From: Longimicrobiales bacterium | GTDB lineage: Bacteria > Gemmatimonadota > Gemmatimonadetes > Longimicrobiales > Gaopeijiaceae | Direction of reading: 5' to 3' | Length of the DNA: 64,000 nt | Assembly: GCA_028278645.1 (NCBI GenBank) | Contig: JANQDZ010000034.1 | Span: 198,261 to 262,260 of the forward strand | In this document: piece by piece, positions 1,470 through 62,132 of the stretch | Position numbering within the stretch: position 1 is the stretch's first letter | Layout of the letters: every line of letters starts with the position of its first letter | The notes under the pieces: model-generated | The model's input: the letters and a program-made list of their open reading frames with translations, nothing else | Told to the model about the DNA's origin: nothing | The model's database searches: none | Made by a program: the position numbers and the translations under genes

Positions 1470-1658
1470 CGCCGGGTCTTCGGGTGAGGGCGCCGAGCCC
1501 TTGCAGGTTTAGCCGGCCATTGGCTGATCCTGGCAGAAGGGTCATCTTTCCTCGCCCAAGGAGGTGACCCTGAAAGCCGAAACACCCAACCGTCTGCTCG
1601 AGCCCTCTCGCCCTGGCCCACCGGTCCAAGCCGATCACTGGACGGGGGGGTGCGGAAA

Positions 1659-3626: not shown

Positions 3627-3876
3627 AAAAACCACGGGATTCTCGGTTCTTAGCACGGCCGGAAAGAAGGTACCGGAGCGACCAGAAGAGTTTTCCACCC
3701 TCCAACTCACCGTTTTTCCACACCGTCCTCTGTTTCTGCGTAACCTCTTGATTTAAAACGTCTTACAGCTAACGACCGCCCCGCCAGGGATCGGGGGACG
3801 GATGGCGTGGCCGTTGCAGCCTACCTGGTTTTGTATCGCCCTTCCCGACCACCCCACCACCGGCGAGGACAGACCA

Positions 3877-8043: not shown

Positions 8044-8136
8044 ACGGAGGTCCGGGGCCGGTGCACTTGCCGGCCCTCGGCCTCCCACCCCAGAGTACCC
8101 TCAGGACTAACCCGATATCGTGGCCCTGAGGCGTTT

Positions 8137-12920: not shown

Positions 12921-12966
12921 GTCCGAAGACCAGAAGGCTTAAGCCCAGCTCAACCCAGGAGCAAGC

Positions 12967-14334: not shown

Positions 14335-17282
14335 TGGTCGATTCAGCCGGCTCTCTCGAACAGGTTCTGAAAGCCTCCATCGAAGGTGAAGTCCGCTTCG
14401 ATCTGGTCACGAGGGGGATGTACTCCACCGATGCGAGCGTGTACCAGGTCGTGCCGGCGGGTGTAGTCATTCCCCGCAGCCAATCCGATGTGATTCGGAC
14501 ACTGGCCGTCTGCTCCGAACACGGTGTGTCGGTCACCGCGAGGGGGGGAGGGACCTCCCAATGTGGTCAGTCCATCGGGGCCGGAATCCAGATCGATTTC
14601 TCGAAGTACATGAGGAAGATCCTGGAGCTGGACCTCTCGAACAAAACCGTCAGAGTGGAACCGGGGATCGTACTGGCGGAGTTGAACCAGGAGCTCCAAC
14701 CCCACGGTCTGGTCCTGCCTTTGGATCTCTCCACCGCCAACCGAGCGACCATCGGAGGAATGATCGCGAACAACTCCTCCGGGACGCGGTCCATCGTGTA
14801 CGGTACCACCATCGACTACGTCCAGGAGTTGAAGGTCCTGTTGGCCGATGGATCCGTGGTGACGACTCAAAGGCTGGATCCCGGGACCTTGGAGTCGAAG
14901 TGCGACCAGCAAGACCTGGAGGGTTCATGTTATCGAGCCGTTCGAGACGTCGCCCGGGAGAGAGCCGACGAGATCCGAACCGGATTCCCTAAAATCAAAC
15001 GTCGGGTGGGAGGTTATAACCTCGACCGATTCCTTCCGCCGGACGACGCAGCCACCGGGGCCGATTCGGAGGCCTTCGACCTTACCCAACTGTTCGTAGG
15101 TTCCGAGGGGACCCTGGGTCTGGTTCTGGAGGCCACCCTGAAGTTGGTGGAGCCCCCCCGGGCGAAGGTCCTGGCGGTGGCCCAGTTCCGGGACCTTCGA
15201 GATGCCATGGTGGCCACACCCGTGATACTCGGCCACCAGCCCTCAGCCGTAGAGTTGATGGACCGGAACCTCCTGGAAATGACCCGGGGGAAGACCGAGT
15301 TCGAACCCCTGAGAGATTTTATCGTGGGGGATCCGGGGGCCATTCTCATCGTGGAGTTCATGGGGCAAACCGGGGAGGAACTCACCCCGAAAGTGAAAAG
15401 ACTCCAGACCGAGCTGGAAGCGGAGGGCCTGGCTAACCACGTCCACCGGGCCATCGAGCCCGGAGCCCAAGCCAAAATCTGGAAGTTGAGGCAAGCCGGG
15501 CTGGGCCTTTCTTTGGCTGAGGTAGGCGATACAAAAGCCATCTCCTTCGTGGAAGACACGGCCGTAGACCCGGGCCAACTCTCGGACTACATCGATCGGT
15601 TCCAGGAGATCCTGGACCGGCACCAGACCGAGGCCATCTTTTACGCCCACGCCTCGGTGGGCCTGCTTCATATCCGGCCCGCCATCAACATGAAAACCCC
15701 GGAGGGCGTTGGACGCTTTCAGGGCATCGCGGAGGAGGTCTCGGAACTGGTGTTGGAGTTCGGCGGAGCCCTGTCTGCAGAGCACGGCGATGGACTAGCC
15801 CGGTCCCCATTCCAGGAGAGAATGTTCGGTCCGGTCCTTTACCAGGCTTTCCGGAAGGTGAAGGAGACGTTCGATCCGGAGGGTGTCCTCAACCCCCAAA
15901 AGATCGTCAACGCTCCCCCCCTCACCAGCTCACTCAGATACGGGCCCGGGTACACGACCAGCCCACCGCCTACCGTATTCGATTTCTCCGATTTCCACGG
16001 CATCGGCGGTGCGGTGGAACAGTGCGGAGGGGTGGGAGCCTGCCGGAAGACGGTGGTGGGTAGCATGTGCCCATCGTACATGGCGACCCGCGAGGAGGCC
16101 GACTCCACCCGCGGCCGGGCGAACGCTCTGAGGATGGCTCTTTCCGGCCGGCTGGGTCCGGGGGGGCTCGCCAACCCGGACCTGTATCCCGTTCTCGACC
16201 TTTGCCTGGAGTGCAAAGCCTGTAAGGCCGAATGCCCCACCGGGGTGGACATGGCAAGGTTAAAAAGCGAGTTCCTCCACCACCACCATCATGCTCACGG
16301 GGCATCCCTTCGGTCGCGGCTCCTCTCCTCGGCGGAGGAGGCGGCAGTGTGGGGGAGCCGCCTGGCCCCCCTGTCCAACTGGATCGGGAGGAGCGCGCCG
16401 GCCAGGTGGTTCACCGAACGGGCATTTGGCATCGACCGGCGCCGGCGGGTCCCTCGAGCTGTTCGTCGCACATTCCTGGATTGGTGGGAATCCAGAGAAG
16501 CAGTAGGGCGCTCGGCTTCCGCCAGTGGACCGAATGGACGCATCGTCATCTTCGCCGACACGTTCATGAACTACTATGAGCCGGGACAGGGCAAGGCCGC
16601 TGTGCGGGTCGCTGAACACCTGGGGGCATCGGTGGAGGTCCCGCCGCGGGTGTGCTGCGGGAGGCCCAAAATCTCCAAGGGGTTCCTGGAAGAGGCCAGG
16701 GCCCAAGCCCGGGCCACGGTCCAGACCCTCTCTCCCCTCGCCCGTGCCGGAATCCCCATCGTCTTCTGCGAGCCGGGGTGTTTTTCGGCTGTCAAAGACG
16801 ACCATCCACACCTTCTCAGGGGTGAAGAGCGGGAAATGGCGGAGGAGGTTTCCCACCGGTGCTCCACATTCGAGGCGTGGGCAGAATCCGTCTTTTCGTT
16901 CGACGGATCACGGCCCTCCGATCTCGAGCATCCGCCGACCCTCGACAAAGGGCCCGAACACATCCTACTCCACCCGCACTGCCATCAGAAGGCACTGGGA
17001 GGACTCCCTCCCGTGCAGAGGCTCCTGGAACGAATCCCTGACAGCGCCGTGGAGGTCGCGGACGCCGGATGTTGTGGGATGGCCGGCTCTTTCGGGTACG
17101 AGAAAGAACACTACGAGACCTCGAAGGCCATCGGAGAACGGAAGCTCCTTCCGACGATCCGGCGGGCCGGGAAGGAAACGGTGGTCGTGGCACCGGGGTT
17201 CTCTTGCCGCCAGCAGATCCGACACTTCACCGAGGCAAAACCGGTGACGGTCATGGAGCTGATGGAAGGACTTCTACCATGA
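14313..17282 (+). CDS. Fused FAD-linked oxidase (GlcD-like) and Fe-S CCG-domain (GlcF-like) 2-hydroxyacid dehydrogenase, YdiJ-like
   Basis: 989 aa. The N-terminal FAD_binding_4 region (MYSTDASVYQVVPAGVVIPRSQSDV...ARGGGTS) is followed by C-terminal Cys clusters (CPSYMATRE..., CLECKACKAECPTGVD, CCGMAGSFGY). The start is GTG at 14313 or the in-frame GTG at 14334 (taGTG), either of which overlaps the GntP stop. Confidence 0.8.
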   Translation: MVGGAGLVVDSAGSLEQVLKASIEGEVRFDLVTRGMYSTDASVYQVVPAGVVIPRSQSDVIRTLAVCSEHGVSVTARGGGTSQCGQSIGAGIQIDFSKYMRKILELDLSNKTVRVEPGIVLAELNQELQPHGLVLPLDLSTANRATIGGMIANNSSGTRSIVYGTTIDYVQELKVLLADGSVVTTQRLDPGTLESKCDQQDLEGSCYRAVRDVARERADEIRTGFPKIKRRVGGYNLDRFLPPDDAATGADSEAFDLTQLFVGSEGTLGLVLEATLKLVEPPRAKVLAVAQFRDLRDAMVATPVILGHQPSAVELMDRNLLEMTRGKTEFEPLRDFIVGDPGAILIVEFMGQTGEELTPKVKRLQTELEAEGLANHVHRAIEPGAQAKIWKLRQAGLGLSLAEVGDTKAISFVEDTAVDPGQLSDYIDRFQEILDRHQTEAIFYAHASVGLLHIRPAINMKTPEGVGRFQGIAEEVSELVLEFGGALSAEHGDGLARSPFQERMFGPVLYQAFRKVKETFDPEGVLNPQKIVNAPPLTSSLRYGPGYTTSPPPTVFDFSDFHGIGGAVEQCGGVGACRKTVVGSMCPSYMATREEADSTRGRANALRMALSGRLGPGGLANPDLYPVLDLCLECKACKAECPTGVDMARLKSEFLHHHHHAHGASLRSRLLSSAEEAAVWGSRLAPLSNWIGRSAPARWFTERAFGIDRRRRVPRAVRRTFLDWWESREAVGRSASASGPNGRIVIFADTFMNYYEPGQGKAAVRVAEHLGASVEVPPRVCCGRPKISKGFLEEARAQARATVQTLSPLARAGIPIVFCEPGCFSAVKDDHPHLLRGEEREMAEEVSHRCSTFEAWAESVFSFDGSRPSDLEHPPTLDKGPEHILLHPHCHQKALGGLPPVQRLLERIPDSAVEVADAGCCGMAGSFGYEKEHYETSKAIGERKLLPTIRRAGKETVVVAPGFSCRQQIRHFTEAKPVTVMELMEGLLP

Positions 17283-39267: not shown

Positions 39268-40479
39268 TCAGCTGCGGCCCGGCCCGTAATGTTTCGGTGC
39301 ATACTCGGCCATGATTCCCATGGGAGGCCGTCCGGCCCTCAACGCGTCGGCCATATAGTTCATCGCACCGGATGTGTGGTTGAAGAACGCCTTATAACCC
39401 TCGCAGAGCCAGTTCAATCCCTTCTCCCCCTCAGGCGTCTCGAGGATCCGATTCTTGGGGCACCCTCCGTTGCACAGAAACTTCACGTCACAAGACCGGC
39501 AGTATCCGGGAAGTGATTCCTTCTTTGCCACCCCGAACGCCTGCTGGGCCTCTGAAGTCACGAGAACAGGGAGAGGTTCTCGCCTGACATTCCCCACGAA
39601 ATGGTTGGGCTCGACGTAGTGGTCGCAAGCATAGAGGTCCCCATTGTGCTCCAAAGCGAGGGCCCTGCCGCAGGTCTCGTCAAAGATGCATAATCCCATC
39701 GGGCGACCTACCCAGCCGGCCAGCGTCACATCGAAGAGCTGCACGAAGACCCTTCCCACGTCGTTACAAACCCATTCGTCGAAGATCGCATTCAGGAACC
39801 GTCCGTACCCAGAGCCGGTGACGGACCGTTCGGTCACCTGAGTCCCCTCCTGGTATCCGGTCCGGTTGTCCCTTTGAACGATGGGAATAAACTGAATGAA
39901 CGACGTCTCTACCTCGTCACGGAAAAACCGGTACACGGGTAACGGGTGCTCGACGTTCGCAGCGTGAACCGTAGCCAGAATGTTGTATTCGACGCGGTGA
40001 TCCTTCAGGAGATCCAGACCTTTCATCACAGCAGCGTGGCTAGGCTTTCCCCCTTTATCCACCCGGTAGACATCGTGGAGGTCGGCCGGCCCATCCAAGC
40101 TGATCCCCACCAGGAAAGCATTCTCACGGAAGAAATGGCACCACTCCTCGGTGATGAAGGTCCCATTCGTTTGCAGGGTGTTGGAGATTCGTGTCCCAGG
40201 CCGGGCGTAGGCTTGCTGGAACTCCACGGCTTTTTGGAAAAAGTCCAACCCCATCAGAAGGGGCTCCCCACCCTGCCATGAGAAGACCACCTCCGGTACC
40301 TGCTGGGCGCGTATGTAATCCCTGGTGAAGTTCTTCAGGATCTCCTCCGACATCCGGAAGGCGGATCCCGGATAGAGGTCCTCCTTGGACAAGTAGTAGC
40401 AGTACGAGCAGTCCAGGTTGCAGATCGGGCCCCTTGGCTTGATCATGACGTGAAAAGGTGGGACCGGGGAAAGGCTCAT
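39268..40479 (-). CDS. Anaerobic sulfatase-maturating enzyme (radical SAM/SPASM, anSME/AslB-like)
   Basis: CNLDCSYC radical-SAM motif. FSWQGGEPLL, LQTNGTFI and LVGISLDGP follow. C-terminal SPASM cysteines are present (CRSCDVKFLCNGGCPKNR). Confidence 0.85.
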   Translation of the reverse strand: MSLSPVPPFHVMIKPRGPICNLDCSYCYYLSKEDLYPGSAFRMSEEILKNFTRDYIRAQQVPEVVFSWQGGEPLLMGLDFFQKAVEFQQAYARPGTRISNTLQTNGTFITEEWCHFFRENAFLVGISLDGPADLHDVYRVDKGGKPSHAAVMKGLDLLKDHRVEYNILATVHAANVEHPLPVYRFFRDEVETSFIQFIPIVQRDNRTGYQEGTQVTERSVTGSGYGRFLNAIFDEWVCNDVGRVFVQLFDVTLAGWVGRPMGLCIFDETCGRALALEHNGDLYACDHYVEPNHFVGNVRREPLPVLVTSEAQQAFGVAKKESLPGYCRSCDVKFLCNGGCPKNRILETPEGEKGLNWLCEGYKAFFNHTSGAMNYMADALRAGRPPMGIMAEYAPKHYGPGRS

Positions 40480-40591: not shown

Positions 40592-42088
40592 ATGCACCGT
40601 CCTTTGATCTTGGCCACCCTCCTGGCACTGGTGTTCGCTTGTGGTCCCCAGCCGGAACCTGAGTCGGAAGACACACAGGTCTACACGGCCGATCCCCATT
40701 CCCGCCCCAACATCATCGTCATCGTTGTGGACGATCTCCGATGGGACGAACTTGCCATTGCCGGGCACCCTTTCCTGGAAACGCCGAACATCGACGCCCT
40801 CGCCGAAGAGGGTGCGTTCTTCAGCAACGCTTTTCATTCGGTCCCCCTCTGCTCTCCCAACCGGGCCAGCATCCTTACGGGGCAGTACCCTTCCCGCCAC
40901 GGAATCATCGACAATGTCGCTCGAAACCGGATGAGCCACCGGCTCAACACCTTCCCCCAAGCTCTCCAAGCAGACGGGTACGAGACGGCCTACTTCGGCA
41001 AATGGCACATGGGGAACGATCCGACCCCCAGGCCCGGATTCGACCGGTGGGTCGCCATCCCGGGCCAGGGACGGACCATGAACCCCGAGCTGTTCGAGGA
41101 CGGCCGAATCCACGAGGTGGAGGGCTACATCACAGACGTCCTCACCGACAGGGCCGTGGATTTTATCTTGGCCGACCGGGAAAGGCCTTTCTTCTTCTAC
41201 ATCGGGCACAAGGCGATCCACCCTGATGCGGTCCAACTCGACGACGGCTCGGTGGACCTCTCCGTCCCCAGGGGATACGTACCGGCTCCCCGACACCGGG
41301 GGCAGTACGAAGAGATGGAGTTCTCACGAAGGCCCAACGCCATCACCACCCTCGGAGACCTGGAGGGTAAGCCAGCCATCCAACAGGCCTTGGCAGCCAA
41401 GTACTCAGCAGAGATCGTCGATGAGTTCGGGGAAGAAGAGCTGGACCCGGGGAGCAGCAATGAGACCATCAGGAGAAGGGCGGAAATGCTTCTGGCGGTG
41501 GACGACGGGCTGGGAAGGATCGTGGAGACGTTGGACCAGGAGGGGATCCTCGACGAAACGCTGATCCTCTTCACCAGCGACAACGGGTTCTTCTACGGGG
41601 AGCATGGGCTCTCTTTGGAAAGAAGGATGCCCTATGAGGAGTCGATCCGGGCCCCACTCATCGTCCGGTATCCTCCTGCGGCTACCCCCGGGACCATCGT
41701 GGAAGACCTGGTGGCCTCGGTTGACATCGCGCCGACGGTGCTGGAGATGGCGGGGACACCCATCGGGGACCACATACAGGGGCAGTCTTTTGTCGAATCA
41801 CTCCGGGGCGCCGCCACCCACCCCAGGTCTTCGATCTTCGTGGAGTTTTTCACCTACGAAAACCCCTTCCCCTGGCTCGTAAACATGGATTATCGAGCGA
41901 TCCGGACCGATCGGTACAAGTACATCCATTGGATGCAGTTCCCAGAGTGGGGGGAGCTCTACGATCTGACGGAAGATCCGTACGAACTCCGGAATCTGGT
42001 GGATGATCCCACCATGGCACCGGTGCTTGAACAGCTGAGGGAGGAACTCAGGGCGTCAGCTCTCCACGCGATGGGGCTGGGTCGTTAG
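40592..42088 (+). CDS. Cys-type sulfatase (arylsulfatase family), secreted lipoprotein-like
   Basis: Signal peptide with LVFAC. The formylglycine motif LCSPNRASILTG (C-x-P-x-R) is present, along with GKWH and other sulfatase motifs. Confidence 0.85.
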   Translation: MHRPLILATLLALVFACGPQPEPESEDTQVYTADPHSRPNIIVIVVDDLRWDELAIAGHPFLETPNIDALAEEGAFFSNAFHSVPLCSPNRASILTGQYPSRHGIIDNVARNRMSHRLNTFPQALQADGYETAYFGKWHMGNDPTPRPGFDRWVAIPGQGRTMNPELFEDGRIHEVEGYITDVLTDRAVDFILADRERPFFFYIGHKAIHPDAVQLDDGSVDLSVPRGYVPAPRHRGQYEEMEFSRRPNAITTLGDLEGKPAIQQALAAKYSAEIVDEFGEEELDPGSSNETIRRRAEMLLAVDDGLGRIVETLDQEGILDETLILFTSDNGFFYGEHGLSLERRMPYEESIRAPLIVRYPPAATPGTIVEDLVASVDIAPTVLEMAGTPIGDHIQGQSFVESLRGAATHPRSSIFVEFFTYENPFPWLVNMDYRAIRTDRYKYIHWMQFPEWGELYDLTEDPYELRNLVDDPTMAPVLEQLREELRASALHAMGLGR

Positions 42089-44039: not shown

Positions 44040-44750
44040 TCAGGGATTTAGACGATACCCGGCTTTCCTCACCGTAAGGATGTACCGGGGATTGGCCGGA
44101 TCCTCCTCGAGCTTCCTCCGAAGTTCGGACAGATGGACGTCCACCGTCCGAGTGTTGATATCGGCATTGCCGTACCCCCAGACCTCCTTCAACAGCTCCT
44201 GGCGGCTGATTACCGCTCCCCTCCGTTCGAGAAGAGCAACGAGGAGATCGAACTCCTTCGGAGTGAGCTCAACCGGGTCGCCCCCTCGGGTGACCGTTCG
44301 TGTGGACGGAGAGACGTCCACCTCCCCGAAAGTCATGACCGCGTCCACACTCCCATCCCCCCCTGCCCCATCTCCCCCAACACCCGTCTGGACTCGCCGC
44401 AGGAGAGCCCTCACGCGAGCCAACAGCTCAGCAGTGGAAAAGGGCTTGGTGACGTAGTCGTCGGCTCCGAAGTCGAAGCCCAGGACCACGTCGGATTCCT
44501 GACTCCGGGCGGTGAGGATCAGGACGGGGAACTTGTGCCCGGTAGTTCTTAACTCCCGAAGAACATCGAACCCGCTTTTCTTCGGAAGCATGATATCCAG
44601 GATCAGGAGGTCCGGTGTGTTCTCCTTCGCCGATGCCAGTCCGGTCTCACCCTTGTTGGCCACCTCGACTTCGTATCCCTCGAATTCCAGGACCTTCCGA
44701 AGGCCGAAGGCCAGGTCCTCGTTGTCCTCAACGACCAGGATTCGGGACAT
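44040..44750 (-). CDS. OmpR-family response regulator (receiver plus winged helix)
   Basis: MSRILVVEDNEDL...LLILDIMLP...LTAR...YVTKPF, with a C-terminal ...RTVDVHLSELRRKLE...ILTVRKAGYRL. Confidence 0.9.
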   Translation of the reverse strand: MSRILVVEDNEDLAFGLRKVLEFEGYEVEVANKGETGLASAKENTPDLLILDIMLPKKSGFDVLRELRTTGHKFPVLILTARSQESDVVLGFDFGADDYVTKPFSTAELLARVRALLRRVQTGVGGDGAGGDGSVDAVMTFGEVDVSPSTRTVTRGGDPVELTPKEFDLLVALLERRGAVISRQELLKEVWGYGNADINTRTVDVHLSELRRKLEEDPANPRYILTVRKAGYRLNP

Positions 44751-44753
44751 GGG

Positions 44754-46457
44754 TCAGCTCCTTACCTCATTTCCACCTTCCGGCGGGTTTAGTGCAACAG
44801 CCCCAGTCACGAGCTCTTCAGGTTTGGGTAGGCGGATCACGAACCTGGCGCTACCGTCAGGGCCTTCCTCCACCCAGGCCGCGCCACCCGAGGCCTCGGC
44901 AAGCTCCGCCACCACCGACAGGCCGATTCCGCTTCCCCGTACCTGCCCCTCCAAATCCCGCTCCAGCCGGTGGTAGGGGTCCCAGATTCGAGACCGTTCT
45001 CCCACGGGAATCCCTGGGCCCTGGTCCTCCACCGAGATCCGGATCCACCCTTCCCTCTCCACCGCCACCAGTCGGATGCGCTGCCCCTCCGGCCCGTACT
45101 TCAGGGCATTGTCCAGTAGGTTCGCCAGCATGCGATGGAGGCCGCTACGGCTGGCCGAAGCTTCGAGGTCCGGCGGGTTCACCGTGATCTCGAGCTCACA
45201 GCCCTTCGACTGGACCAAAGGATCAAAAGCCTCCGCCAAGTCGCCTATGGCCTCTTCCACCAGGATCCGCTCGCTTGCATTCTGAGATCTAGGGGCCCGC
45301 CCCATCCTCGAGAAATGGAGAATATTCTCCACGAGATGGGTCAAACGACGTGCTTCCCGGTTGATGACCTCAGTGGACCTCAGCCTTTCCTCATCGGTCC
45401 TGAGCTTTCCATCGGCCAGGAGCTCGGTGAACATCCGAATGTGAGTGAGAGGCGTCCGGAACTCGTGGGAAACCCCCGAAATGAAATCGTCCCGGACCTG
45501 CGCCAATTCCTCCTCTTTCCGGATCTGGATGAAAGTGGCGATCCCAATTCCCACCGTCATCACCATCAGCGCCAGGAGCAGGGGCAAACGAGCCCTCGGG
45601 AGGCCACCGATCACCAGGGCGGCCGCGGCGTCGGGCCGAATGCCCACCTCGATTACGATGCCGCCGAACTCCTCCGAGAGAGTATCGGAGACCACGACCA
45701 CGTCCGGGGTCGGCCGTGGGGAGGAGAAGATGGGGTCCCCGTCCCAGGTCCTGACCACCAAGTGAAGGATCGAATCATTGGGCTGGCCACCCACGATGGC
45801 TTCCGGGAGGAGGGCCCCCCGCCGGTACCAGGAATCAAACAGTTCGGCTGTGGCTTCCAAGCCGGCTTGAAGAACATAGATGGCCCGGCCGACGCCCTCC
45901 GTTCCCGTGCGGTCCAGGGATGCATTGAAGAAGAGGACCGACGGCTCCCTCAAGCCCTGGGAGTCGCCCACGGTCCGGAGTGCGATCCGGACAGCCGGGG
46001 AAGCTTCCCACGCGGTACGAACGAACCCGGCGGCTCGGCTCTTTTCGCCGTAGGCGACGGAGTCCGGCTCGCTTCGAACCTGGCCGGTATAGAAGTCCTG
46101 CATGATCGAGGCTGCCGAAGCCCGGAATCGGCTACACTCACAGTTCACCTGTCGTAGGGCACGATCGATGTTCCGGCTTACTGCCTCCGGCCCAGGGGGG
46201 GGGCGATTGACGATTTGCCTGGGCACATCGCCGAAAACCACCCGGAAGAACCGGTCGAGGTCCCCCTGCACCCGTCTGGAGTACTCCGATACGGCAATGT
46301 CGGCATAGTCGCGTAGAACCCCTTCAGCGGTCTGGCGGTGGGACCTGGCCGCACCCACCGCCTGGAACCCGAGCCATAGAGAAAGGCCGAGGGTGACCAG
46401 GAGGAAGAACAGAAGTAGCGGCATCCGCCGCCTACCGCGGGGAGAGGTCTTCGTCAT
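44754..46457 (-). CDS. Sensor histidine kinase (two TM segments, periplasmic sensor, HisKA plus HATPase_c)
   Basis: H-box FISGVSHEFRTPLT. N, G1 and G2 boxes follow (...LDNALKY..., GSGIGLSVV). It lies 3 nt upstream of the response-regulator gene. Confidence 0.85.
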   Translation of the reverse strand: MTKTSPRGRRRMPLLLFFLLVTLGLSLWLGFQAVGAARSHRQTAEGVLRDYADIAVSEYSRRVQGDLDRFFRVVFGDVPRQIVNRPPPGPEAVSRNIDRALRQVNCECSRFRASAASIMQDFYTGQVRSEPDSVAYGEKSRAAGFVRTAWEASPAVRIALRTVGDSQGLREPSVLFFNASLDRTGTEGVGRAIYVLQAGLEATAELFDSWYRRGALLPEAIVGGQPNDSILHLVVRTWDGDPIFSSPRPTPDVVVVSDTLSEEFGGIVIEVGIRPDAAAALVIGGLPRARLPLLLALMVMTVGIGIATFIQIRKEEELAQVRDDFISGVSHEFRTPLTHIRMFTELLADGKLRTDEERLRSTEVINREARRLTHLVENILHFSRMGRAPRSQNASERILVEEAIGDLAEAFDPLVQSKGCELEITVNPPDLEASASRSGLHRMLANLLDNALKYGPEGQRIRLVAVEREGWIRISVEDQGPGIPVGERSRIWDPYHRLERDLEGQVRGSGIGLSVVAELAEASGGAAWVEEGPDGSARFVIRLPKPEELVTGAVALNPPEGGNEVRS

Positions 46458-46854
46458 GTGATCCGTTGGAGAAAACCTGGGTTCGCCGTCGCGAAAAGGT
46501 GTGTTCTTCCACACCGAATCAAAGCTAGGGAAACATCCGACGTGCCAGCAACAAAAAGAGGCCTGAAGCAGGTTCGTGTCTCGTAAGAAAGGCGTAAGTC
46601 AAAAACCGCTCACGGACCGGTTTATGCCCATCGAAGAAGCTGGTATTCCCAGGGGGCGGGCTGCATCTTCTTACTGAGACCCCGATGCGGCTTCGGGTGC
46701 TCATCCACCACCTCAGAAAAAACGAGAGTCGGCGACCCAGCGTCCATCTGCGAAAATGCAGGCGGCGGTAATGCAGCTTCCCCCCGCGGCCGGGGAAGCC
46801 CACGGGTCGGCGGCGTCACCTGTCCACATAATTCTCTGAGGGAAGGAGTCCACC

Positions 46855-50440: not shown

Positions 50441-50559
50441 GTTTCGTATCTCCTTGTCCTATCCCATACCCAAGAAATTCTGCGCGAGGACAGCAACGAT
50501 CACCCCGAACGTGACGAGGGCAAGGGCCAACGCGGCCCAGTCGGCTGTTGTCATCCTCC

Positions 50560-51714
50560 TCACCGGTCCCCCCCTTTCTTCCCTTTCACCCACCGCTTCG
50601 CGTCCAGTACCACCAACTCAATAGTCCGCATCGGGCAGAAGAAGTTGCACCACGGCGTTTGTATGAGGAGAGAGACAGTGAGGACTATGAAAAGCAGGAA
50701 CCACTGAACGGTGGATCCATGCAAGGCAAACAAGGCGGCAAACGGTTCGTAACTCGCCAGCGCTGGTTGCAAGGTCAGGAAAGCCAGGAAAAGGGCCACG
50801 AAGACTACCAGATTTCGAGTCCCCTCCATAAAACGCACTGCCCAAAGGGGGACTTTCAGCTTGAACCCACCGATGGCACCGATCAACCGCTGAGCGGCCC
50901 CGAAAGGGCACGCATAAAGGCAGTAGAGGTTCCGGCCGAAAAAGATCGATGTCAGCAGGAACCCTGCGATGAGGAGATAGATTGCCAACGCGGTCCTAGG
51001 ATCGGGGAGGAAGCCGGAGAGAATCCCTGCGAGCTTCGCCATGGTGATGGGGGAGTTTTCCCAAAAGCCCAACACCAGCAATCCGACGATCTGCCCTGCC
51101 CAGCGCAAACGCCTCCGGATGGGACCCCTGAGGCGATGGCCGATGATGCCGATGGAAAACAGGGCCAGGATCGAAAGCTCGAGAATGCCGAACTCGAGGG
51201 GGCGGGGGGGAAGGGGTAAGCGGACATCGAACGCCACACCGGCAACCTCGGCTACCGAGACCCTCAAGCTTTCGACGATGGCATCGGCCGAGAGAGTGGC
51301 GCCTGTGACAGCCACGACGCTCTCATAGTCGTAGTCGATAGCATTGTACTGGGCACCGGTGATCTCCCGAATGTAATCCGGAGAGCGGACCATCCTCCAG
51401 AAAACCGGAGTCTCCCTCTGTTCCACCACCTGGACCCCGGCCACCAAGCCCAAGGTGTCGATCCCCACCACCAGGAGCATCGGCCCACCGTACCCATCGG
51501 CAGTTCCCACACCCGCCCAACCGATCAGAGTCCCGCCGGACCCCCATACGTGGTGCACACCCTGTCGGACCTCAATGCGCTGGGACTCCGGGAAAATGGT
51601 GCGGATGGGTGTAACGAAGTCCGGGGCGTTGTGGGTCCACCCGTACGCCAGAGCTCCGGCCAGAATCACCGAGGCCACGAAGAACCGGAGGAACCGGCCG
51701 CTAGGTCTGTTCAA
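50560..51714 (-). CDS. RdhC/NosR/NapH-like membrane protein (FMN-bind domain plus ferredoxin-type Cys motifs)
   Basis: The FMN-bind hallmark is VVAVTGATLSADAI. TM segments follow, then CLYACPFGAAQ and CNFFCPMR motifs. Confidence 0.65.
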   Translation of the reverse strand: MNRPSGRFLRFFVASVILAGALAYGWTHNAPDFVTPIRTIFPESQRIEVRQGVHHVWGSGGTLIGWAGVGTADGYGGPMLLVVGIDTLGLVAGVQVVEQRETPVFWRMVRSPDYIREITGAQYNAIDYDYESVVAVTGATLSADAIVESLRVSVAEVAGVAFDVRLPLPPRPLEFGILELSILALFSIGIIGHRLRGPIRRRLRWAGQIVGLLVLGFWENSPITMAKLAGILSGFLPDPRTALAIYLLIAGFLLTSIFFGRNLYCLYACPFGAAQRLIGAIGGFKLKVPLWAVRFMEGTRNLVVFVALFLAFLTLQPALASYEPFAALFALHGSTVQWFLLFIVLTVSLLIQTPWCNFFCPMRTIELVVLDAKRWVKGKKGGDR

Positions 51715-51738
51715 GGCACGAGTCCCGCGGTCGGACGG

Positions 51739-52059
51739 CTAGGCCTCCGAAACAACATCCCCACCGCCAGGCTCTGCACCGGCGAGGAGCACCCTCCAAA
51801 GGCCCACGCCTGCGATGATCGTAATCGCCCCGAAGAGGAGTCCGCCACGAGTGCCAGCCACGGACTCCCCCTCCCCGAACGACGTCCCTACAAAGGCGAT
51901 GGTGAAGCCGGCCAGGAGCAGCCAGATCATGAAGAGTCCCCACTTCCATACCGGCACCCGGAGCCCTCGGTCACGTGCCCAGGCTCCCATGCCCAAAACG
52001 ACAAATACGAAGAGTATTCCCTCGATGAACCAGAACAACCCTGAGTTGAAGATCTGCAT
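51739..52059 (-). CDS. RdhB-like small membrane anchor (three TM segments)
   Basis: 106 aa starting 3 nt after the rdhA1 stop. It shares a W.W.L...F...EG...G.L.G pattern with the second RdhB-like ORF. Confidence 0.5.
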   Translation of the reverse strand: MQIFNSGLFWFIEGILFVFVVLGMGAWARDRGLRVPVWKWGLFMIWLLLAGFTIAFVGTSFGEGESVAGTRGGLLFGAITIIAGVGLWRVLLAGAEPGGGDVVSEA

Positions 52060-52062
52060 TTT

Positions 52063-53568
52063 CTAGCCTAGATCGATGAAATCTTCGGTCTTGAGCCACC
52101 AGGGTGGCTCGCGATAGGAGGCGTTCGCTCCGCCCAGGGAAGGCATGTAATAGTCCTGAGGGTCCGGCCCGGGATAAAAGCTCTTTTGCATGGACGTGAG
52201 GAGCTTCTCCGACAAACCGGTGGGATCGTTCGCCGAGACCTTCATGGCCGTTTTATGAAGCCAGTTGGCCTTCCTGGTATAAGGGCAAACACTCACACAG
52301 AGTCGGCAGCCCATATTCCCCAAGGTGGAGGTCCAGAAGTTCTGGCACTTGGCAGTGTCGATGGCCCATCGCCGGTACCCGCGGACTTCTACCTTGTCAC
52401 CCATGGGGATCGCGCCGCTGGGACATTCCTCGGCGCAGACCTTACAGTGGAGACAGAAGTCGTCCACCCCGATATCGATGGGCTTGTCGCTGGCCATGGG
52501 AAGATTCGTCGTGATCACCGCCGGTCTGAAGTTGCAGCCTACCTCGGGGGTGATCATGATGCCGTTTCTCCCCTGTTCCCCCAGACCCGCATCAATGGAG
52601 ATGGGGGGGACGATCAAGTCATAGCTGGTCCCGGGGGTATGGGTCCTCGCAGGGTAGCCCAACGCCTTGACAAAGGCAGCCACCCTGGCTGCGATGATTC
52701 TGGATCGGGAATAGGCGTCGTTGGACGTCCCGTAGTTGGGGTTGGCGTACATGGGGTCCCACGACATGGGCGTCCCGACCACGATGGCGTAGGTCCACCA
52801 ATCCGGGATCTCCAAAGGCTGTTCCAGATCTTCGAATCCCCTGCCCCGAATCGGGTACCCATAAACCCAGTCGGGATTGAGCTCGGTGATCCCAGTCAAG
52901 GTTGACCCGAGCTGCATGGATATCACCTTGATGAGCTCAGCGGTTTTAGCCGGGTCCTTCATCTTCATGGGTTCGGGCCGGGTCCCGCCCCTGCCTCTTG
53001 GGAAGTCGTTGACTTCAGGAGGACCGTTGATGGGCCCCGGGCCCACGGCACCCATGGCTGCGGACCACGCCTGTGAGAGGATGAGCGGGTCACTATACTC
53101 CATGGCGTCGGCCCGGTTGAGGGGCTGGAGCTCTTCCGTGTTCAGGATATCCAGATCGAGATCCTGAGGTTTGGCCAGATAGTAACTCCGAAGGGGTTCG
53201 GGAAAAGACTCGGCGGTAATAGGGCCCGGACCACCCCTGAGCCGCATGTACTCCCGCATGAACCGACCCCGACGCTCGAAGATCTGCTCCACTCTAGCGT
53301 CAGGCCGACTGGTGGGCCCGACTTCCTGGTAGGTCGGCTCGTCGACTTCGTACCGCTTCCGGTTGAAGACGAGGCTCGCCCCCTCCTGGTTTTGCCACCC
53401 CAGGTACGTATTGGGGTCCTTCCCCGCGGCGTAGCCGAATGCGCCCAACCCGGCTCCCCCGGCAGCGGCGCTGGCGAGGCCAGCCAGCTTCAGGAAATCC
53501 CGGCGATTCACATCGCTTCCCCCGCCGGGGCCACCGGATCCATCATTCTTCGATTCATTGTCACTCAT
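52063..53568 (-). CDS. Reductive dehalogenase homologue RdhA (TAT signal, two [4Fe-4S] motifs)
   Basis: Twin-arginine motif NRRDFLKLAGLASAAAGGA. C-terminal CLHCKVCAEECP plus C...CRLCVSVCP. ATG at 53568 is preceded by GGAGA. An alternative ATG lies at 53580. Confidence 0.8.
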   Translation of the reverse strand: MSDNESKNDGSGGPGGGSDVNRRDFLKLAGLASAAAGGAGLGAFGYAAGKDPNTYLGWQNQEGASLVFNRKRYEVDEPTYQEVGPTSRPDARVEQIFERRGRFMREYMRLRGGPGPITAESFPEPLRSYYLAKPQDLDLDILNTEELQPLNRADAMEYSDPLILSQAWSAAMGAVGPGPINGPPEVNDFPRGRGGTRPEPMKMKDPAKTAELIKVISMQLGSTLTGITELNPDWVYGYPIRGRGFEDLEQPLEIPDWWTYAIVVGTPMSWDPMYANPNYGTSNDAYSRSRIIAARVAAFVKALGYPARTHTPGTSYDLIVPPISIDAGLGEQGRNGIMITPEVGCNFRPAVITTNLPMASDKPIDIGVDDFCLHCKVCAEECPSGAIPMGDKVEVRGYRRWAIDTAKCQNFWTSTLGNMGCRLCVSVCPYTRKANWLHKTAMKVSANDPTGLSEKLLTSMQKSFYPGPDPQDYYMPSLGGANASYREPPWWLKTEDFIDLG

Positions 53569-53592
53569 GCCGGTCTCCAAGTAGCTCCTCGG

Positions 53593-55029
53593 CTACATCT
53601 TCTCTCGAGCCGTGATGCTCTGGGATCCATCCAGACTCCAGAACTCGGTGTCATCCGTCTGTTTTCCGTATCCGCTGGCCTGATCCAGCTTCACCATAGC
53701 TTTGTCCGCCGTGACCAGGCGCCCCTCAATCATCCCACGGATCATTCGGTGTAACCAGGAGTTGTTCGGCTTGTTGAACGGGCAAACCCTTTTGCAGTTG
53801 GAGCAGCTGAACCCGTTGAAGTCATAACAACCCTCGGGCTCGGTATACCATTTCAGGGTCCCGGGATTGTTGGACACCGAGTTCCCTTCCCAGGTCTGAG
53901 GCCCCTTGGTGACAGACTCGCTGGGGCAATCGTCCGCGCAGAGCATACAGGCTTCGCAGAACTCGGTGACCCCGAAGTCGATGGGAGAGTCAGGTACCAA
54001 AGGCATATCTGTAATGACTTTGGCCAACCTTACCCTCGGGCCGTACTTCGGAGTCACCAGAAGGCCCATCCGACCCAATTGTCCCAGGCCGGCATCGATG
54101 GCGATTGGGATTGACAGGCCGACGCCGTTCCCGGCGGGGAGGGCCCGGTACCCGAGACCCCGGATGAAGTCCGCTACCTGGCTCGATGTAACGGCCATGC
54201 GGGAATACCCATTGCCCGTCGCTGCCGAAGCCAACCGCCCCGGGGAGTTGGAAATCCCGTAAAAGTCCTCTTCGAAAGCGAGGGCAACGACCCGGTTCAT
54301 GGATTCGGGGATGTACCAGGCGTCGTCGGTCCGTTCGAATCGGTCTTCGGTTCGGTGAACGGTGATGGTCCGCTCCCGGTTCTCGCTGGTCGGACTGTAG
54401 ATGTCTCGATAGAGCCAGAGGGGGTTCATCTCCGCCACGCCGGCCAAGGAGGCTCCGAGGAATAAAGCGGCATGGCGTGTGGCGAGAGTGGCTTCTTCCC
54501 AGCTCATCCCCAACTCCGACGGATTCCAGGGACCCATCCGGTCCAATCCAGCTCCTCGAACCTGACCCCCAATCCCGTCCCATTCGTAGTCCCGGCTCCC
54601 CCCCATGCTGGCGTGCCTCCACGCGGCGGCGTAGAGGGCGTAGTCCAGACGGGTTTGGTTCGGGAGCCTTCCCTCGCCTTCTACCAGATTCCGGGCAGTT
54701 ACGTTCTCGGCACTTGCCAGTTCGGCCAGCCGGGCGGGATCCCACCCGTTCCTACTGAAGACGTTATCGACCTCCCGCATGGGGGCTAACACGCCGGGAT
54801 CGACCTCGTAGGGGAAGCGGCCGCTCGTTAGCTTCTCGACCACGAAGCCGCCGTACTCCGCCTTCGACTCGACCAGGACGCCCCGGTCAGTGGCTCCCAG
54901 GACCCTCGGCGTGGCGAAGAGTCCCCCAAGCGCCATGGCAGTTCCTCCGAGGCCACCTGCCCCAGCCACCGCTGACCCGGACCCCAGAACGGTGAGAAAC
55001 CTTCGCCGATCCATACCGATCTCAGACAT
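53593..55029 (-). CDS. Reductive dehalogenase homologue RdhA, second paralog (TAT signal, two [4Fe-4S] motifs)
   Basis: Twin-arginine motif DRRRFLTVLGSGSAVAGA. CEACMLCADDCP plus C...CSNCKRVCP. AGAGGTGG precedes the ATG at 55029. Confidence 0.8.
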   Translation of the reverse strand: MSEIGMDRRRFLTVLGSGSAVAGAGGLGGTAMALGGLFATPRVLGATDRGVLVESKAEYGGFVVEKLTSGRFPYEVDPGVLAPMREVDNVFSRNGWDPARLAELASAENVTARNLVEGEGRLPNQTRLDYALYAAAWRHASMGGSRDYEWDGIGGQVRGAGLDRMGPWNPSELGMSWEEATLATRHAALFLGASLAGVAEMNPLWLYRDIYSPTSENRERTITVHRTEDRFERTDDAWYIPESMNRVVALAFEEDFYGISNSPGRLASAATGNGYSRMAVTSSQVADFIRGLGYRALPAGNGVGLSIPIAIDAGLGQLGRMGLLVTPKYGPRVRLAKVITDMPLVPDSPIDFGVTEFCEACMLCADDCPSESVTKGPQTWEGNSVSNNPGTLKWYTEPEGCYDFNGFSCSNCKRVCPFNKPNNSWLHRMIRGMIEGRLVTADKAMVKLDQASGYGKQTDDTEFWSLDGSQSITAREKM

Positions 55030-55393
55030 GACCACCTCTTTGGTCCGGCTGGACCGTCCCCCCTTCCGGACTGCCTTTCGTAGAGAAGGCCGTCCGCCCA
55101 AGGAGCACGGCCCATACGACGGTAAAGAAGCCCAACAGCGTGCCCATCACCGCAGCCCCTTTGGGTGTCCCTTCCTTCATGAAAGCCACCACAACCTCCA
55201 GGACAAACACGGCATACAAGAACCCTAGAAACGTCAGGAGCCACTGCCACCACTGGACCGTCAGCCCACGAAGCCGGGCAAACCGGATGAGCAGGGCAAA
55301 TCCGGTGGCGGCACAGGCACCGATCAACAACTCGGCCATGGATTCCCTCCCGAAGGACTCGGCGAACTCCAGGGAAGGTCCATCCTGGGCCAT
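55022..55393 (-). CDS. RdhB-like small membrane anchor, second copy
   Basis: Three TM segments. Its stop overlaps the rdhA2 start (ATGTCTGA). GGGAGA precedes the ATG at 55393. Confidence 0.5.
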   Translation of the reverse strand: MAQDGPSLEFAESFGRESMAELLIGACAATGFALLIRFARLRGLTVQWWQWLLTFLGFLYAVFVLEVVVAFMKEGTPKGAAVMGTLLGFFTVVWAVLLGRTAFSTKGSPEGGTVQPDQRGGHV

Positions 55394-55566: not shown

Positions 55567-55671
55567 TCAGATTCCCCAATCCTCGTCATCGAGAATCGGG
55601 TATCTCTTCTTGCCGTGGACTGGACAGGAGGGATCGGGAACCAGTTCGCACTCGGCCGTGTGCCGGTCCAT
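55567..55671 (-). CDS. Possible 34-aa Cys-containing micro-protein upstream of the rdh genes
   Basis: MDRHTAECELVPDPSCPVHGKKRYPILDDEDWGI. GGGAGAGGG sits 8 nt upstream of the ATG. This call is speculative. Confidence 0.25.
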   Translation of the reverse strand: MDRHTAECELVPDPSCPVHGKKRYPILDDEDWGI

Positions 55672-55969
55672 TGTCTGATTTCCCTCTCCCCGCATGATGA
55701 CCCAACAGGTGCACCTCTCCCCCGTGTCGCCGGGCCGCTCCCGCGACGCGCTTCCCCTCACATACATCCCGGAAGGCCCCCGTTTTCCGTCCACAGGGGG
55801 CCTGGTCCGGGTATACCGGTGCTTCAGGCTCATGTCTAAATCTGCAACCCCTTTTCGGCGAAGGGAATGGTCCCGTCAGGGGACACCCAAGCGGGGTGGT
55901 TCTGAAGTCGCGGTGGAGATGACGTAGTGGAGGAACCGGAGCGGAGCGGAGGGATGAGGAAAAGGCTGG

Positions 55970-56617
55970 TCAGGCCAGAGACCCCTTGGTCTTCATCTTC
56001 TTGTTGGAGCCGATGGCGGCTTTCAGGCAGAGGACATAGAGCTGTTTTGGGTCTCTGGGTGCGGAAGGAGACCCGCCGGAGGTAGCCCACTCGGCGGCTT
56101 GAGCAGAGTCCTCTAAACAGCCCAACGTCTCGAGGGCATCTGCCGCCGCCTTGAGGAATGTGGCATCGGAAACGAGGCGGGCCATCTCGAGGATCTGACC
56201 ACAGGCGAGACGCTCTCGTTGTCCCTCCTTGGCCACGGCCACGTACTCCTGGAGGCTGGCAACCGCGGCCCCGGCCTTCATGGAGGCCAGGTCCAACCAG
56301 GTCAGAGTGCAAAGCGTGCGGATGGCTTCCGGATGCAGTCGGATGACTTTTTTCGCAACAGCCCTGGCAGGCTCTGGTTGGTCGTCTTCCAAGAGGGCGT
56401 CGATGGCCTTACCGAAGTACCGAAGAGCCCGGAGCCGATCATCGGCTTTCAGGTAAGCATCTCCCAAACGGTTGAACACCGCCCAGCGAGCACCGGGCGA
56501 AGCTTTTTCGGCCTCCGCCGCCAGTTCCTTGAGGTGCCGATCAGAGGTCCCGGTACTTTCTGTCCCAAAAAGCCCGTTGAGCGACTCACGCCATTTGCGG
56601 AATAGACTCATCGCCAT
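55970..56617 (-). CDS. Hypothetical helical (TPR-like?) protein
   Basis: 215-aa ORF with Ala/Leu-rich helical repeats (LGDAYLKADDRLRALRYFGKAIDAL). Lies next to the rdh cluster. Function unknown. Confidence 0.4.
   Translation of the reverse strand: MAMSLFRKWRESLNGLFGTESTGTSDRHLKELAAEAEKASPGARWAVFNRLGDAYLKADDRLRALRYFGKAIDALLEDDQPEPARAVAKKVIRLHPEAIRTLCTLTWLDLASMKAGAAVASLQEYVAVAKEGQRERLACGQILEMARLVSDATFLKAAADALETLGCLEDSAQAAEWATSGGSPSAPRDPKQLYVLCLKAAIGSNKKMKTKGSLA

Positions 56618-58125: not shown

Positions 58126-62132
<4,007 letters not shown>

Follow-up and report, generated by a model that had tools for sequence, protein, structure and literature searches.

The window analysed here is a 64,000-nucleotide (nt) stretch of contig JANQDZ010000034.1 (assembly GCA_028278645.1) from an uncultured Gemmatimonadota bacterium. 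It carries a reductive dehalogenase (rdh) gene cluster in the order rdhB2-rdhA2-rdhA1-rdhB1-rdhC. The five genes are co-directional on the minus strand and occupy positions 50560-55339; coordinates are positions within the window unless another of the analysed rdh loci (L-numbers) is named. They encode two catalytic subunits (RdhA), two small membrane proteins (RdhB) and RdhC. At the level of sequence identity, both RdhAs are confirmed as members of the reductive dehalogenase family. The locus is probably one operon with two different membrane-anchored RdhAs, and its most likely function, as predicted from these sequences, is to provide two quinol-dependent periplasmic organohalide reductases.

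Two catalytic subunits of the reductive dehalogenase family

A first-pass annotation, made from the letters of this stretch, had called both large genes rdhA and had proposed searches with the hidden Markov models TIGR02486 and PF13486 as the check. TIGR02486 agreed with the assignment: RdhA2 scored 223.8 bits against the curated cutoff of 160.35 bits, and RdhA1 passed marginally with 162.6 bits. PF13486 did not agree, and this result is taken up below. The twin-arginine signals and the two cysteine motifs per protein described in the annotation were present. The signal for twin-arginine translocation (TAT) reads DRRRFLT in RdhA2 and NRRDFLK in RdhA1, and RdhA1 passed the TIGR01409 model. We aligned 40 sequences of each family. 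The twin-arginine motif was nearly invariant in both alignments, and the iron-sulfur (Fe-S) cysteines, arranged as CX2CX2CX3CP and then CXnCX2CX3CP, were invariant. The catalytic tyrosine and arginine, kept in both RdhAs of the window, were also invariant in both families. RdhA1 and RdhA2 share 27.6% identity over 293 amino acids (aa; E 2e-32).

The annotation had named the epoxyqueuosine reductase QueG as the competing identity, to be preferred if QueG gave the best match and the corrinoid core of RdhA was lacking. The nearest relatives were PceA and NpRdhA. With the QueG model (TIGR00276; cutoff 200 bits), the two proteins reached 43.8 and 50.6 bits. These matches were partial, covering the Fe-S region and part of the core. 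QueG chains in the PDB were matched at E 1e-10 to 1e-5, compared with 1e-65 (RdhA2) and 1e-46 (RdhA1) for RdhAs. QueG is a cytoplasmic enzyme without a TAT signal or RdhB and RdhC partners.

In the PDB sequence search, the closest solved relative of RdhA2 was PceA of S. multivorans (E 3e-65; 39.7% identity over 297 aa), and PceA of D. hafniense (DhPceA) was matched at E 5e-53. The first Fe-S motif of RdhA2 is CEACMLCADDCP at residue 358, and the second, at residue 401, is C-x7-CSNCKRVCP. The equivalents of PceA Tyr246, Asn272 and Arg305 are retained, as are those of DhPceA K489, H495, R499, D515 and Y520; all eight positions were invariant in the 40-sequence alignment. In the cryo-EM structure of PceA2B2, the latter five are polar residues that line the menaquinone pocket (PMC10624902). 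RdhA2 is a predicted PceA-like enzyme in which the menaquinone-pocket residues are retained. One RdhA2 sequence taken from NCBI (P0130) has 447 aa and covers 94% of the query. Because it is shorter, its start would fall past the twin-arginine signal, and this looks like a mis-called start codon in the deposited annotation.

For RdhA1, the closest solved relative was NpRdhA (PDB 4RAS, 6ZXU; E 4e-46; 34% identity over 250 aa), and PceA was matched at E 5e-33. Its first Fe-S motif is CLHCKVCAEECP at residue 372, and the second is C-x12-CRLCVSVCP at residue 408. In a core alignment of both RdhAs, the two PceAs and NpRdhA, three indels were common to RdhA1 and NpRdhA: there is no insertion after the WxY strand, the linker between the Fe-S motifs is short, and the second motif has a 12-residue spacer. 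The catalytic tyrosine (equivalent of NpRdhA Tyr426) is kept. The position of NpRdhA K488 is Arg in RdhA1, as in PceA (R305 position), and that of NpRdhA R552 is Trp. The C-terminus of RdhA1 has the respiratory-type K..NWLH motif, with the menaquinone-pocket residues kept only in part. A catabolic, cytosolic NpRdhA type was considered for RdhA1 and rejected, because RdhA1 has a TAT signal and an RdhB partner, is 501 aa long, and resembles NpRdhA in the core only. Unlike NpRdhA (about 700 aa), RdhA1 (about 500 aa) also has an adjacent RdhC and the K..NWLH C-terminus. RdhA1 belongs to a tight clade (A1), which is predicted to combine a catabolic-type (NpRdhA-like) core with respiratory-type export, anchor and C-terminus.

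An AlphaFold2 model of RdhA1 was used for comparison at the fold level only. Block means of the predicted local distance difference test (pLDDT) were mostly about 60-90 over residues 90-410, with a low loop at 269-284 and termini below 50. A Foldseek search with this model returned E-values of 1e-17 to 4e-15 for PceA, NpRdhA and DhPceA, compared with 3e-8 for QueG.

The N-terminal region of RdhA1, about 170 aa, is clade-specific and conserved and has no known relative; no PDB chain aligned to residues before about 190. RdhA1 was searched against 1.84 billion sequences that represent clusters formed at 50% identity. At E <= 1e-3, 2,898 representatives matched, and the match was full-length in only about 15-20 (40-53% identity). 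In seven of the eight full-length relatives inspected, the RRxF[LFMI]K motif was present; the exception (P0256) has a degenerate ARNFLK after an N-terminal hydrophobic segment. RdhA1 is thus assigned to a separate TAT-dependent subfamily, in which a characteristic N-terminal region is conserved.

Gene junctions, membrane anchors and RdhC

In a six-frame list, the longest open reading frames (ORFs) of the five genes, all on the minus strand, are 55022-55393, 53593-55101, 52063-53580, 51739-52059 and 50560-51714. The five consecutive rdh genes of the first-pass annotation were thus found where it had placed them. Genes had been called independently on a public contig with 100% identity to the window (Logan SRR20820740_35274, locus L001). 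That gene call starts them at 55339 (rdhB2, 105 aa), 55029 (rdhA2, 478 aa), 53568 (rdhA1, 501 aa), 52059 (rdhB1, 106 aa) and 51678 (rdhC, 372 aa). The earlier start of rdhB2, at 55393, is the limit of its ORF and had to be moved: orthologues begin with MAELxIG, and they and the gene call make 55339 the most likely start. Candidate starts of rdhC are TTG at 51714 and GTG at 51678.

The junctions are short. As the annotation had read from the sequence, rdhB2 (stop at 55022) overlaps the rdhA2 ATG (55029) by 8 nt, and a gap of 3 nt separates the rdhA1 stop (52063) from the rdhB1 ATG (52059). There are 24 nt from the rdhA2 stop to the rdhA1 ATG (53568), and 24-60 nt from the rdhB1 stop to rdhC, depending on the choice of start codon. 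The rdhC stop overlaps a 34-aa ORF by 4 nt (junction -4 nt, GTGA). Between 47 and 57 kb, matches to promoters and terminators were no more frequent than in shuffled sequence, so the boundaries of the transcription unit were inferred from spacing only. The GC content is 0.59-0.63 (about 0.61) in the cluster and throughout the window, lower than the value of about 65% given before. We also considered a genomic island or a recent transfer into this genome and found no support for either: GC is uniform, related metagenome-assembled genomes (MAGs) keep the flanking genes in synteny, and no integrase, transposase or tRNA was seen in the window (ARAGORN was used for tRNA).

The products of rdhB1 and rdhB2 each contain three hydrophobic helices, and both have a precomputed PF27193 (VcrB) match in the annotation of the L001 contig. 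Thus, the earlier description of two RdhB-like proteins with three transmembrane (TM) segments held. Local scans with Pfam and NCBIfam assigned no family to either protein. B1 and B2 share 32.5% identity over 80 aa (E 3e-6). In B1, the loop between TM2 and TM3 contains GEGE or GENE (an ExE motif) in 26 of 26 loci; the ExE pair E61/E63 of PceB is discussed in PMC10624902. The corresponding loop of B2 was compared in an alignment of 11 orthologues: those from Gemmatimonadota have [R/K]EG, those from other phyla have EEG, and one glutamate is universal. An rdhB1 partner was present in 26 of the 31 related loci.

RdhC had been described as RdhC-like with the covalent flavin motif TGATLS. The motif was found at residue 137, inside an FMN_bind domain, and Pfam also matched Fer4_5. 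In addition, two CX3CP motifs are present, CLYACP (265) and CNFFCP (356). The protein has only four cysteines and no ferredoxin-type clusters, and a simple hydropathy scan gave 5-6 hydrophobic segments. The NosR, RnfG and NapH models gave only partial matches, with scores far under the respective cutoffs. Buttet et al. (2018, PMC5928378) define RdhC by [S/T]G[A/S]TX[S/T], two CX3CP motifs, multiple TM helices and the absence of 4Fe-4S motifs. By its predicted features, the last gene of the cluster is an rdhC in this sense, in agreement with the earlier description. rdhC was found in 22 of the 31 related loci. Cassettes in which both halves are fused hold one rdhC, and each half standing alone carries its own. 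That a single rdhC is kept on fusion argues that RdhC serves both enzymes.

The 34-aa ORF directly after rdhC was called as a gene on L001, and its product is VRRMTTADWAALALALVTFGVIVAVLAQNFLGMG. Through the GTGA overlap, it is predicted to be translationally coupled to rdhC. In 11 loci that span four phylum-level groups, an ORF of about 30-40 aa with the motif G(L/V)I(V/I)(A/G)(I/V)LxQ(N/S)FL immediately follows or overlaps the rdhC stop on the same strand (several positions are in Table 1). The carriers include Gemmatimonadota, Planctomycetota/Phycisphaerales and Latescibacteria. One by one these matches are weak, and the evidence is their positional consistency. No such ORF was found after more divergent RdhCs (28-31% identity) or in B2-A2-C loci. 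Between the window and L003, pN of the ORF was 0.22 and pS 0.62. The ORF may encode an unrecognised sixth component of the system.

Distribution of the cassette and relation to known systems

The first-pass annotation had regarded the system as undescribed and lineage-specific. This view could not be kept, because the cassette occurs in other Gemmatimonadota MAGs and in one Latescibacteria MAG, its halves occur in other phyla, and NCBI and JGI already list members of both RdhA families under the name 'reductive dehalogenase'. In some JGI entries, family members bear the label 'epoxyqueuosine reductase' or 'ferredoxin' instead.

We surveyed the cassette by tblastn of the window proteins against 28 loci. 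The nearest genomes are MAGs of uncultured Gemmatimonadaceae/Gemmatimonadota from marine sediments, with 83-84% identity in A1. The full order B2-A2-A1-B1-C was found in eight Gemmatimonadota-related loci (L002, L003, L004, L005 partial, L007, L008, L010 and L021); in L002 and L003, conservation extends to the flanking genes. The same five-gene order is present in a Latescibacteria MAG (GCA_030631625.1, L031). In that locus, rnfD/G/E/A/B precede the cassette (1-4757), and ApbE lies three genes upstream; these genes are consistent with predicted RdhC flavinylation and ferredoxin-linked energy metabolism. In L012 (unclassified MAG BLK6-1.bin.45, 7691-8624), an apparently fragmentary B2-A2 lies upstream of an intact A1-B1-C, with only residues 118-159 and 268-478 of A2 represented. 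This B2-A2 half may be decaying into a pseudogene, or the assembly may be at fault.

The halves of the cassette occur apart in at least five other phyla. A1-B1-C alone was found in Planctomycetota, Phycisphaerae, Acidobacteriota/Aminicenantes and KSB1/QNDG01. B2-A2-C alone was found in L029/L030 and L033/L034, through a protein labelled Candidatus Aminicenantes at NCBI and a close relative. In every A2-family locus examined, B2 precedes and overlaps A2. L029 and L033 have in common an aromatic amino-acid ammonia-lyase (PF00221), a MatE exporter and a metallophosphoesterase, and in L033 a 394-aa poly-ferredoxin directly follows rdhC. These neighbours could be clues to substrate or electron supply. 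Among the database matches, 14 pairs of A1- and A2-family members report an equal longest-contig size, which suggests that many more cassettes exist.

Across phyla, identity is 59-88% for A1 and 62-86% for A2; RdhC identity outside Gemmatimonadota is 28-50%. Against the two closest orthologous loci, the ratio of nonsynonymous to synonymous substitution (dN/dS) was 0.02-0.035 for A1 and about 0.08-0.13 for A2, B1, B2 and C (B2 0.10-0.13), with synonymous sites near saturation. All six genes, including the small ORF, are under purifying selection (dN/dS 0.02-0.19).

Among characterised systems, PceA/PceB (S. multivorans, PDB 4UQU; D. hafniense PceA2B2, PDB 8Q4H) are the closest to the A2 half. 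Over the core that holds the corrinoid and the Fe-S clusters, A2 shares 38-40% identity with the two PceAs. Like PceA, A2 has TAT export, two Fe-S motifs, the Tyr/Asn/Arg set, the polar residues of the menaquinone pocket and a three-helix B partner. As in PceC of pceABCT (PMC5928378), RdhC has covalent-FMN and CX3CP motifs. In contrast to pceABCT, the gene order of the A2 half is B-A and not A-B, and no PceT-like chaperone lies near the cluster. B1 and B2 have no detectable sequence similarity to any PDB chain, those of 8q4h included, and B2 keeps only one loop glutamate. The hosts also differ: PceA is known from a Firmicute and a Campylobacterota member, whereas the host here belongs to the uncultured Gemmatimonadota. 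In chlorophenol reductive dehalogenase operons of Desulfitobacterium (cprBA), rdhB precedes rdhA. The B2-A2 pair has the same order and the same overlap, but CprK, a CRP/FNR protein with a helix-turn-helix, is not encoded near the cassette.

A cold-seep survey (Han et al. 2025, Microbiome, PMC12219181) reports rdhA-like genes in Gemmatimonadota and Aminicenantaceae. It also sets apart a 'novel clade' that lies between the cytosolic and the prototypical type; its members have TAT signals, an N-terminal helix and rdhB partners, and phylum QNDG01 is named as a carrier. A1 shows this feature set, and the vestigial N-terminal cobalamin-binding domain that the survey gives for cytosolic RdhAs is not matched in A1. 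Loci of the A1 family include cold-seep MAGs (CSMAG_*) and the QNDG01 type assembly (L020). From these features, we infer that A1 corresponds to the 'novel clade', a correspondence of features and not a mapping to the groups of that survey. The B-A-A-B-C cassette, the shared RdhC and the small ORF are not described in the text consulted. A Mariana Trench paper lists Gemmatimonadota (order Longimicrobiales) among dehalogenating MAGs, with no detail of an rdh cluster. RdhAs fused to N-terminal TM helices (PMC6797604) are a different type, without TAT or RdhB.

Neighbouring genes and proposed function

The features of the locus are collected in Table 1. Directly downstream of the small ORF lies a gene for a BNR beta-propeller protein, which starts 18 nt past the small-ORF stop and has an AAGGAG Shine-Dalgarno sequence. 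From this spacing and the Shine-Dalgarno sequence, the gene is probably co-transcribed with the cassette. The protein partially matches the F510_1955 glycosylhydrolase family. Orthologues lie downstream of rdh genes in L004 (6627-9170), L020 (2353-5115), L021 (11240-13777) and L029 (16678-end). The L020 orthologue (KSB1/QNDG01) is 45% identical over 886 aa, and L029 is the Aminicenantes-type locus. Thus, a BNR gene stands beside rdh in five of 31 non-redundant loci including the window; several of the 31 do not extend far enough for a downstream gene to be seen.

Table 1. Features of the rdh locus with assigned or predicted functions, and positions of the small ORF in other loci
Feature	Position	Strand	Basis
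rdhB2, predicted three-helix membrane anchor for RdhA2, 105 aa	55022..55339	minus	ORF, PF27193 VcrB, topology, orthologue alignment
rdhA2, PceA-like catalytic subunit with TAT signal, 478 aa	53593..55029	minus	TIGR02486, PceA alignment
rdhA1, catalytic subunit of distinct TAT-dependent clade, NpRdhA-like core, 501 aa	52063..53568	minus	TIGR02486, NpRdhA alignment
rdhB1, predicted three-helix membrane anchor for RdhA1, 106 aa	51739..52059	minus	PF27193 VcrB, TM segments, ExE loop
rdhC, NosR/NapH-like membrane flavoprotein (predicted)	50560..51714	minus	FMN_bind, Fer4_5, TGATLS, CX3CP
Conserved 34-aa single-helix ORF	50459..50563	minus	gene call on L001, position kept across loci
BNR/Sortilin-Vps10 beta-propeller, exported, 891 aa	47765..50440	minus	Pfam Sortilin-Vps10 and BNR
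Histidine kinase and OmpR/PhoB-type response regulator	44040..46514	minus	HisKA/HATPase_c, Response_reg/Trans_reg_C
cNMP-binding protein, 153 aa	46855-47316		cNMP-binding domain only
Small ORF in L003	10440-10544		
Small ORF in L004	5720-5827		
Small ORF in L009	~2940-3055		
Small ORF in L010	~9360-9470		
Small ORF in L011	~5077-5190		
Small ORF in L021	~10995-11108		
Small ORF in L026	~10418-10530		
Small ORF in L031	~12360-12460		

The first-pass annotation had noted that classic rdh regulators were absent. For the CprK and MarR types this stands, since neither these nor a PceT-like chaperone was found near the cluster. It does not stand for two-component systems, which are a classic type of rdh-associated regulator in Dehalococcoides. 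A histidine kinase and response regulator pair (44040-46514) lies about 3 kb downstream of the cluster, past the BNR gene. Its position is kept by orthologues in L003 and L006, and L018, L026 and L027 have unrelated pairs close to A1-B1-C. By position, the pair is a candidate for the regulation of the cassette. The 153-aa protein with a cyclic nucleotide monophosphate (cNMP)-binding domain was considered for a CprK-like role and rejected, because it has no match to a DNA-binding domain. The context had also been called unusual. This description did not hold, because the cassette and its flanking genes are conserved in related MAGs, the two-component system is nearby, and rdhA-like genes have been surveyed in Gemmatimonadota (PMC12219181).

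Upstream of rdhB2, two minus-strand ORFs of 215 aa (55970-56617, no Pfam or NCBIfam match) and 88 aa (55567-55833, no Pfam match) keep their position only in the closest MAGs (L002 and L003) and lie outside the cross-phylum cassette. A LacZ-type beta-galactosidase of glycoside hydrolase family 2 (GH2; about 1070 aa, 58926-62132, plus strand) lies a few kb from the cassette, likewise in the Gemmatimonadaceae MAG of L002; in the Latescibacteria locus L031, a GH2 beta-galactosidase (12541-15768) directly follows rdhC. Further away, an anaerobic sulfatase-maturating radical-SAM enzyme (39268-40479, minus; TIGR03942, 484 bits against a cutoff of 349) and an arylsulfatase-like protein (40592-42088, plus) form a divergent pair. 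This pair hints at an anaerobic or facultative lifestyle and the use of sulfated organics. At 12967-17282 on the plus strand, a GntP-family permease is followed by a 989-aa FAD-linked oxidase/4Fe-4S/CCG fusion that resembles glycolate or D-lactate dehydrogenases; together, these genes might offer a route for a potential electron donor.

On the interpretation that we prefer, two quinol-dependent periplasmic reductases, each RdhA would be folded with its cofactors in the cytoplasm, exported by the Tat system, and docked on its own three-helix RdhB at the outer face of the cytoplasmic membrane. Menaquinol bound between the C-terminal helices of RdhA and RdhB would pass electrons through two [4Fe-4S] clusters to cobalt, as in PceA2B2 (PMC10624902). 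The halogen would then be stripped from the organohalide, with a proton supplied by the conserved tyrosine. RdhC, predicted to be covalently flavinylated, and the 34-aa peptide would be accessories of both enzymes and act either in maturation or in the transfer of electrons. The two RdhAs share 28% identity and probably differ in the natural marine organohalogens that they reduce. We also count the anaerobic sulfatase maturase of the window in favour of this interpretation, as it is in keeping with an anaerobic or facultative lifestyle. Gene identities, motifs, synteny, conservation and selection are observed, and quinol dependence, energy conservation, the part played by RdhC and the substrates are predicted.

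Several observations weigh against it. PF13486 had no match in either RdhA at E <= 0.01; Pfam reported only ferredoxin domains and a weak TAT signal on both, and a precomputed PF13486 match exists in a few A2-family members. The domain supports an RdhA assignment but does not strictly define it. RdhA1 clears TIGR02486 by only 2 bits, and the confidence of its model is moderate only (mean pLDDT 63.8). PDB sequence searches with both RdhBs at E <= 10 returned nothing, though the PceAB entry 8q4h was in the set. Because these searches were empty, the RdhB assignment rests on the PF27193 matches, topology, position and loop motif, and in Gemmatimonadota B2 lacks one of the two glutamates of that loop. 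Whether RdhC takes part in electron transfer is disputed, since the abundance of PceC is about 50-fold below that of PceA and many organohalide respirers have no PceC (PMC10624902). At Rfam gathering thresholds, the whole window had no match to an RNA family and therefore no cobalamin riboswitch. Genes for the ApbE flavin transferase, cobalamin, tat and menaquinone were not found in the 64-kb window, the part of the genome that was covered. None of the 27 genome matches has a cultured source; all are MAGs. The high conservation of the RdhAs is unusual for substrate-diversified RdhAs, and they could act on one housekeeping substrate.

We also considered that the enzymes may be periplasmic dehalogenases without a respiratory role, which would detoxify halogenated compounds or dehalogenate marine organic matter, such as halogenated or sulfated products of algae and sponges, for further degradation. 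They would then belong to a degradation neighbourhood of secreted hydrolases, with no energy conservation. The exported hydrolases nearby (BNR propeller, GH2 beta-galactosidase, serine hydrolase and the arylsulfatase with its maturase) fit this idea, as do the BNR genes beside rdh in four other loci from three lineages and the GH2 genes of the Latescibacteria locus and L002. The core of A1 is nearest to the catabolic NpRdhA, and the Aminicenantes-type B2-A2-C loci adjoin the ammonia-lyase and MatE exporter genes. However, TAT export, RdhB anchors, quinone-pocket residues and RdhC are hallmarks of quinol-linked respiratory enzymes, and quinol oxidation at the outer face of the membrane conserves energy regardless of the purpose of the reaction. 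Moreover, most related loci are without hydrolase neighbours. We consider a purely non-respiratory role unlikely.

Somewhat less likely still, one or both enzymes, in particular the A1 clade, may be RdhA-fold corrinoid enzymes for a non-halogenated substrate (compare QueG, which acts on an epoxide), so that the dehalogenase label would be an over-annotation. The narrow TIGR02486 pass of A1 and the missing PF13486 match would agree with this. The cross-phylum identity of A1 (59-88%) and its dN/dS (0.02-0.035), compared with the 28-50% identity of RdhC, suggest one fixed and widespread substrate. The residues of NpRdhA that bind the substrate hydroxyl differ in A1 (K488 to Arg, R552 to Trp), and the conserved N-terminal 170 aa are peculiar to the clade. 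On the other hand, the catalytic tyrosine and the adjacent basic residue of PceA/NpRdhA halide chemistry are invariant, and A1 is much nearer in sequence and fold to proven dehalogenases than to QueG. No RdhA homologue with TAT export and an RdhB anchor is known to have an activity other than dehalogenation. That the proteins are QueG or generic ferredoxin-type Fe-S proteins, as the weak TIGR00276 and ferredoxin-domain matches and some JGI labels might suggest, is practically ruled out by scores far below the QueG cutoff and by PDB and fold matches far weaker than those to RdhAs (about nine orders of magnitude for QueG in the fold search).

A more speculative and rather improbable extension of the two-reductase interpretation is that the cassette is a fixed module that moves between sediment phyla. 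It would encode one hetero-oligomeric (A1B1·A2B2) quinol:organohalide oxidoreductase with a shared RdhC, a hitherto unrecognised membrane subunit of about 34 aa and possibly the co-transcribed BNR protein, and would act on an abundant natural compound; the A1 clade would be an intermediate between catabolic and respiratory enzymes.

The cluster is of an expected kind, and such genes are already common in this environment; the mixed-type A1 clade and the conserved small ORF coupled to rdhC are modestly interesting features. Marine sediments are large natural reservoirs of organohalogens, and the organisms that turn these compounds over are mostly inferred from metagenomes. The locus adds a well-resolved example from the Gemmatimonadota. 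Because the cassette is compact, constrained and present across phyla, with two divergent RdhA/RdhB pairs, one RdhC and a small ORF, it is a good candidate for heterologous expression. It bears on the role of RdhC/PceC and, since A1 combines features of both types, on the relationship between catabolic and respiratory dehalogenases.

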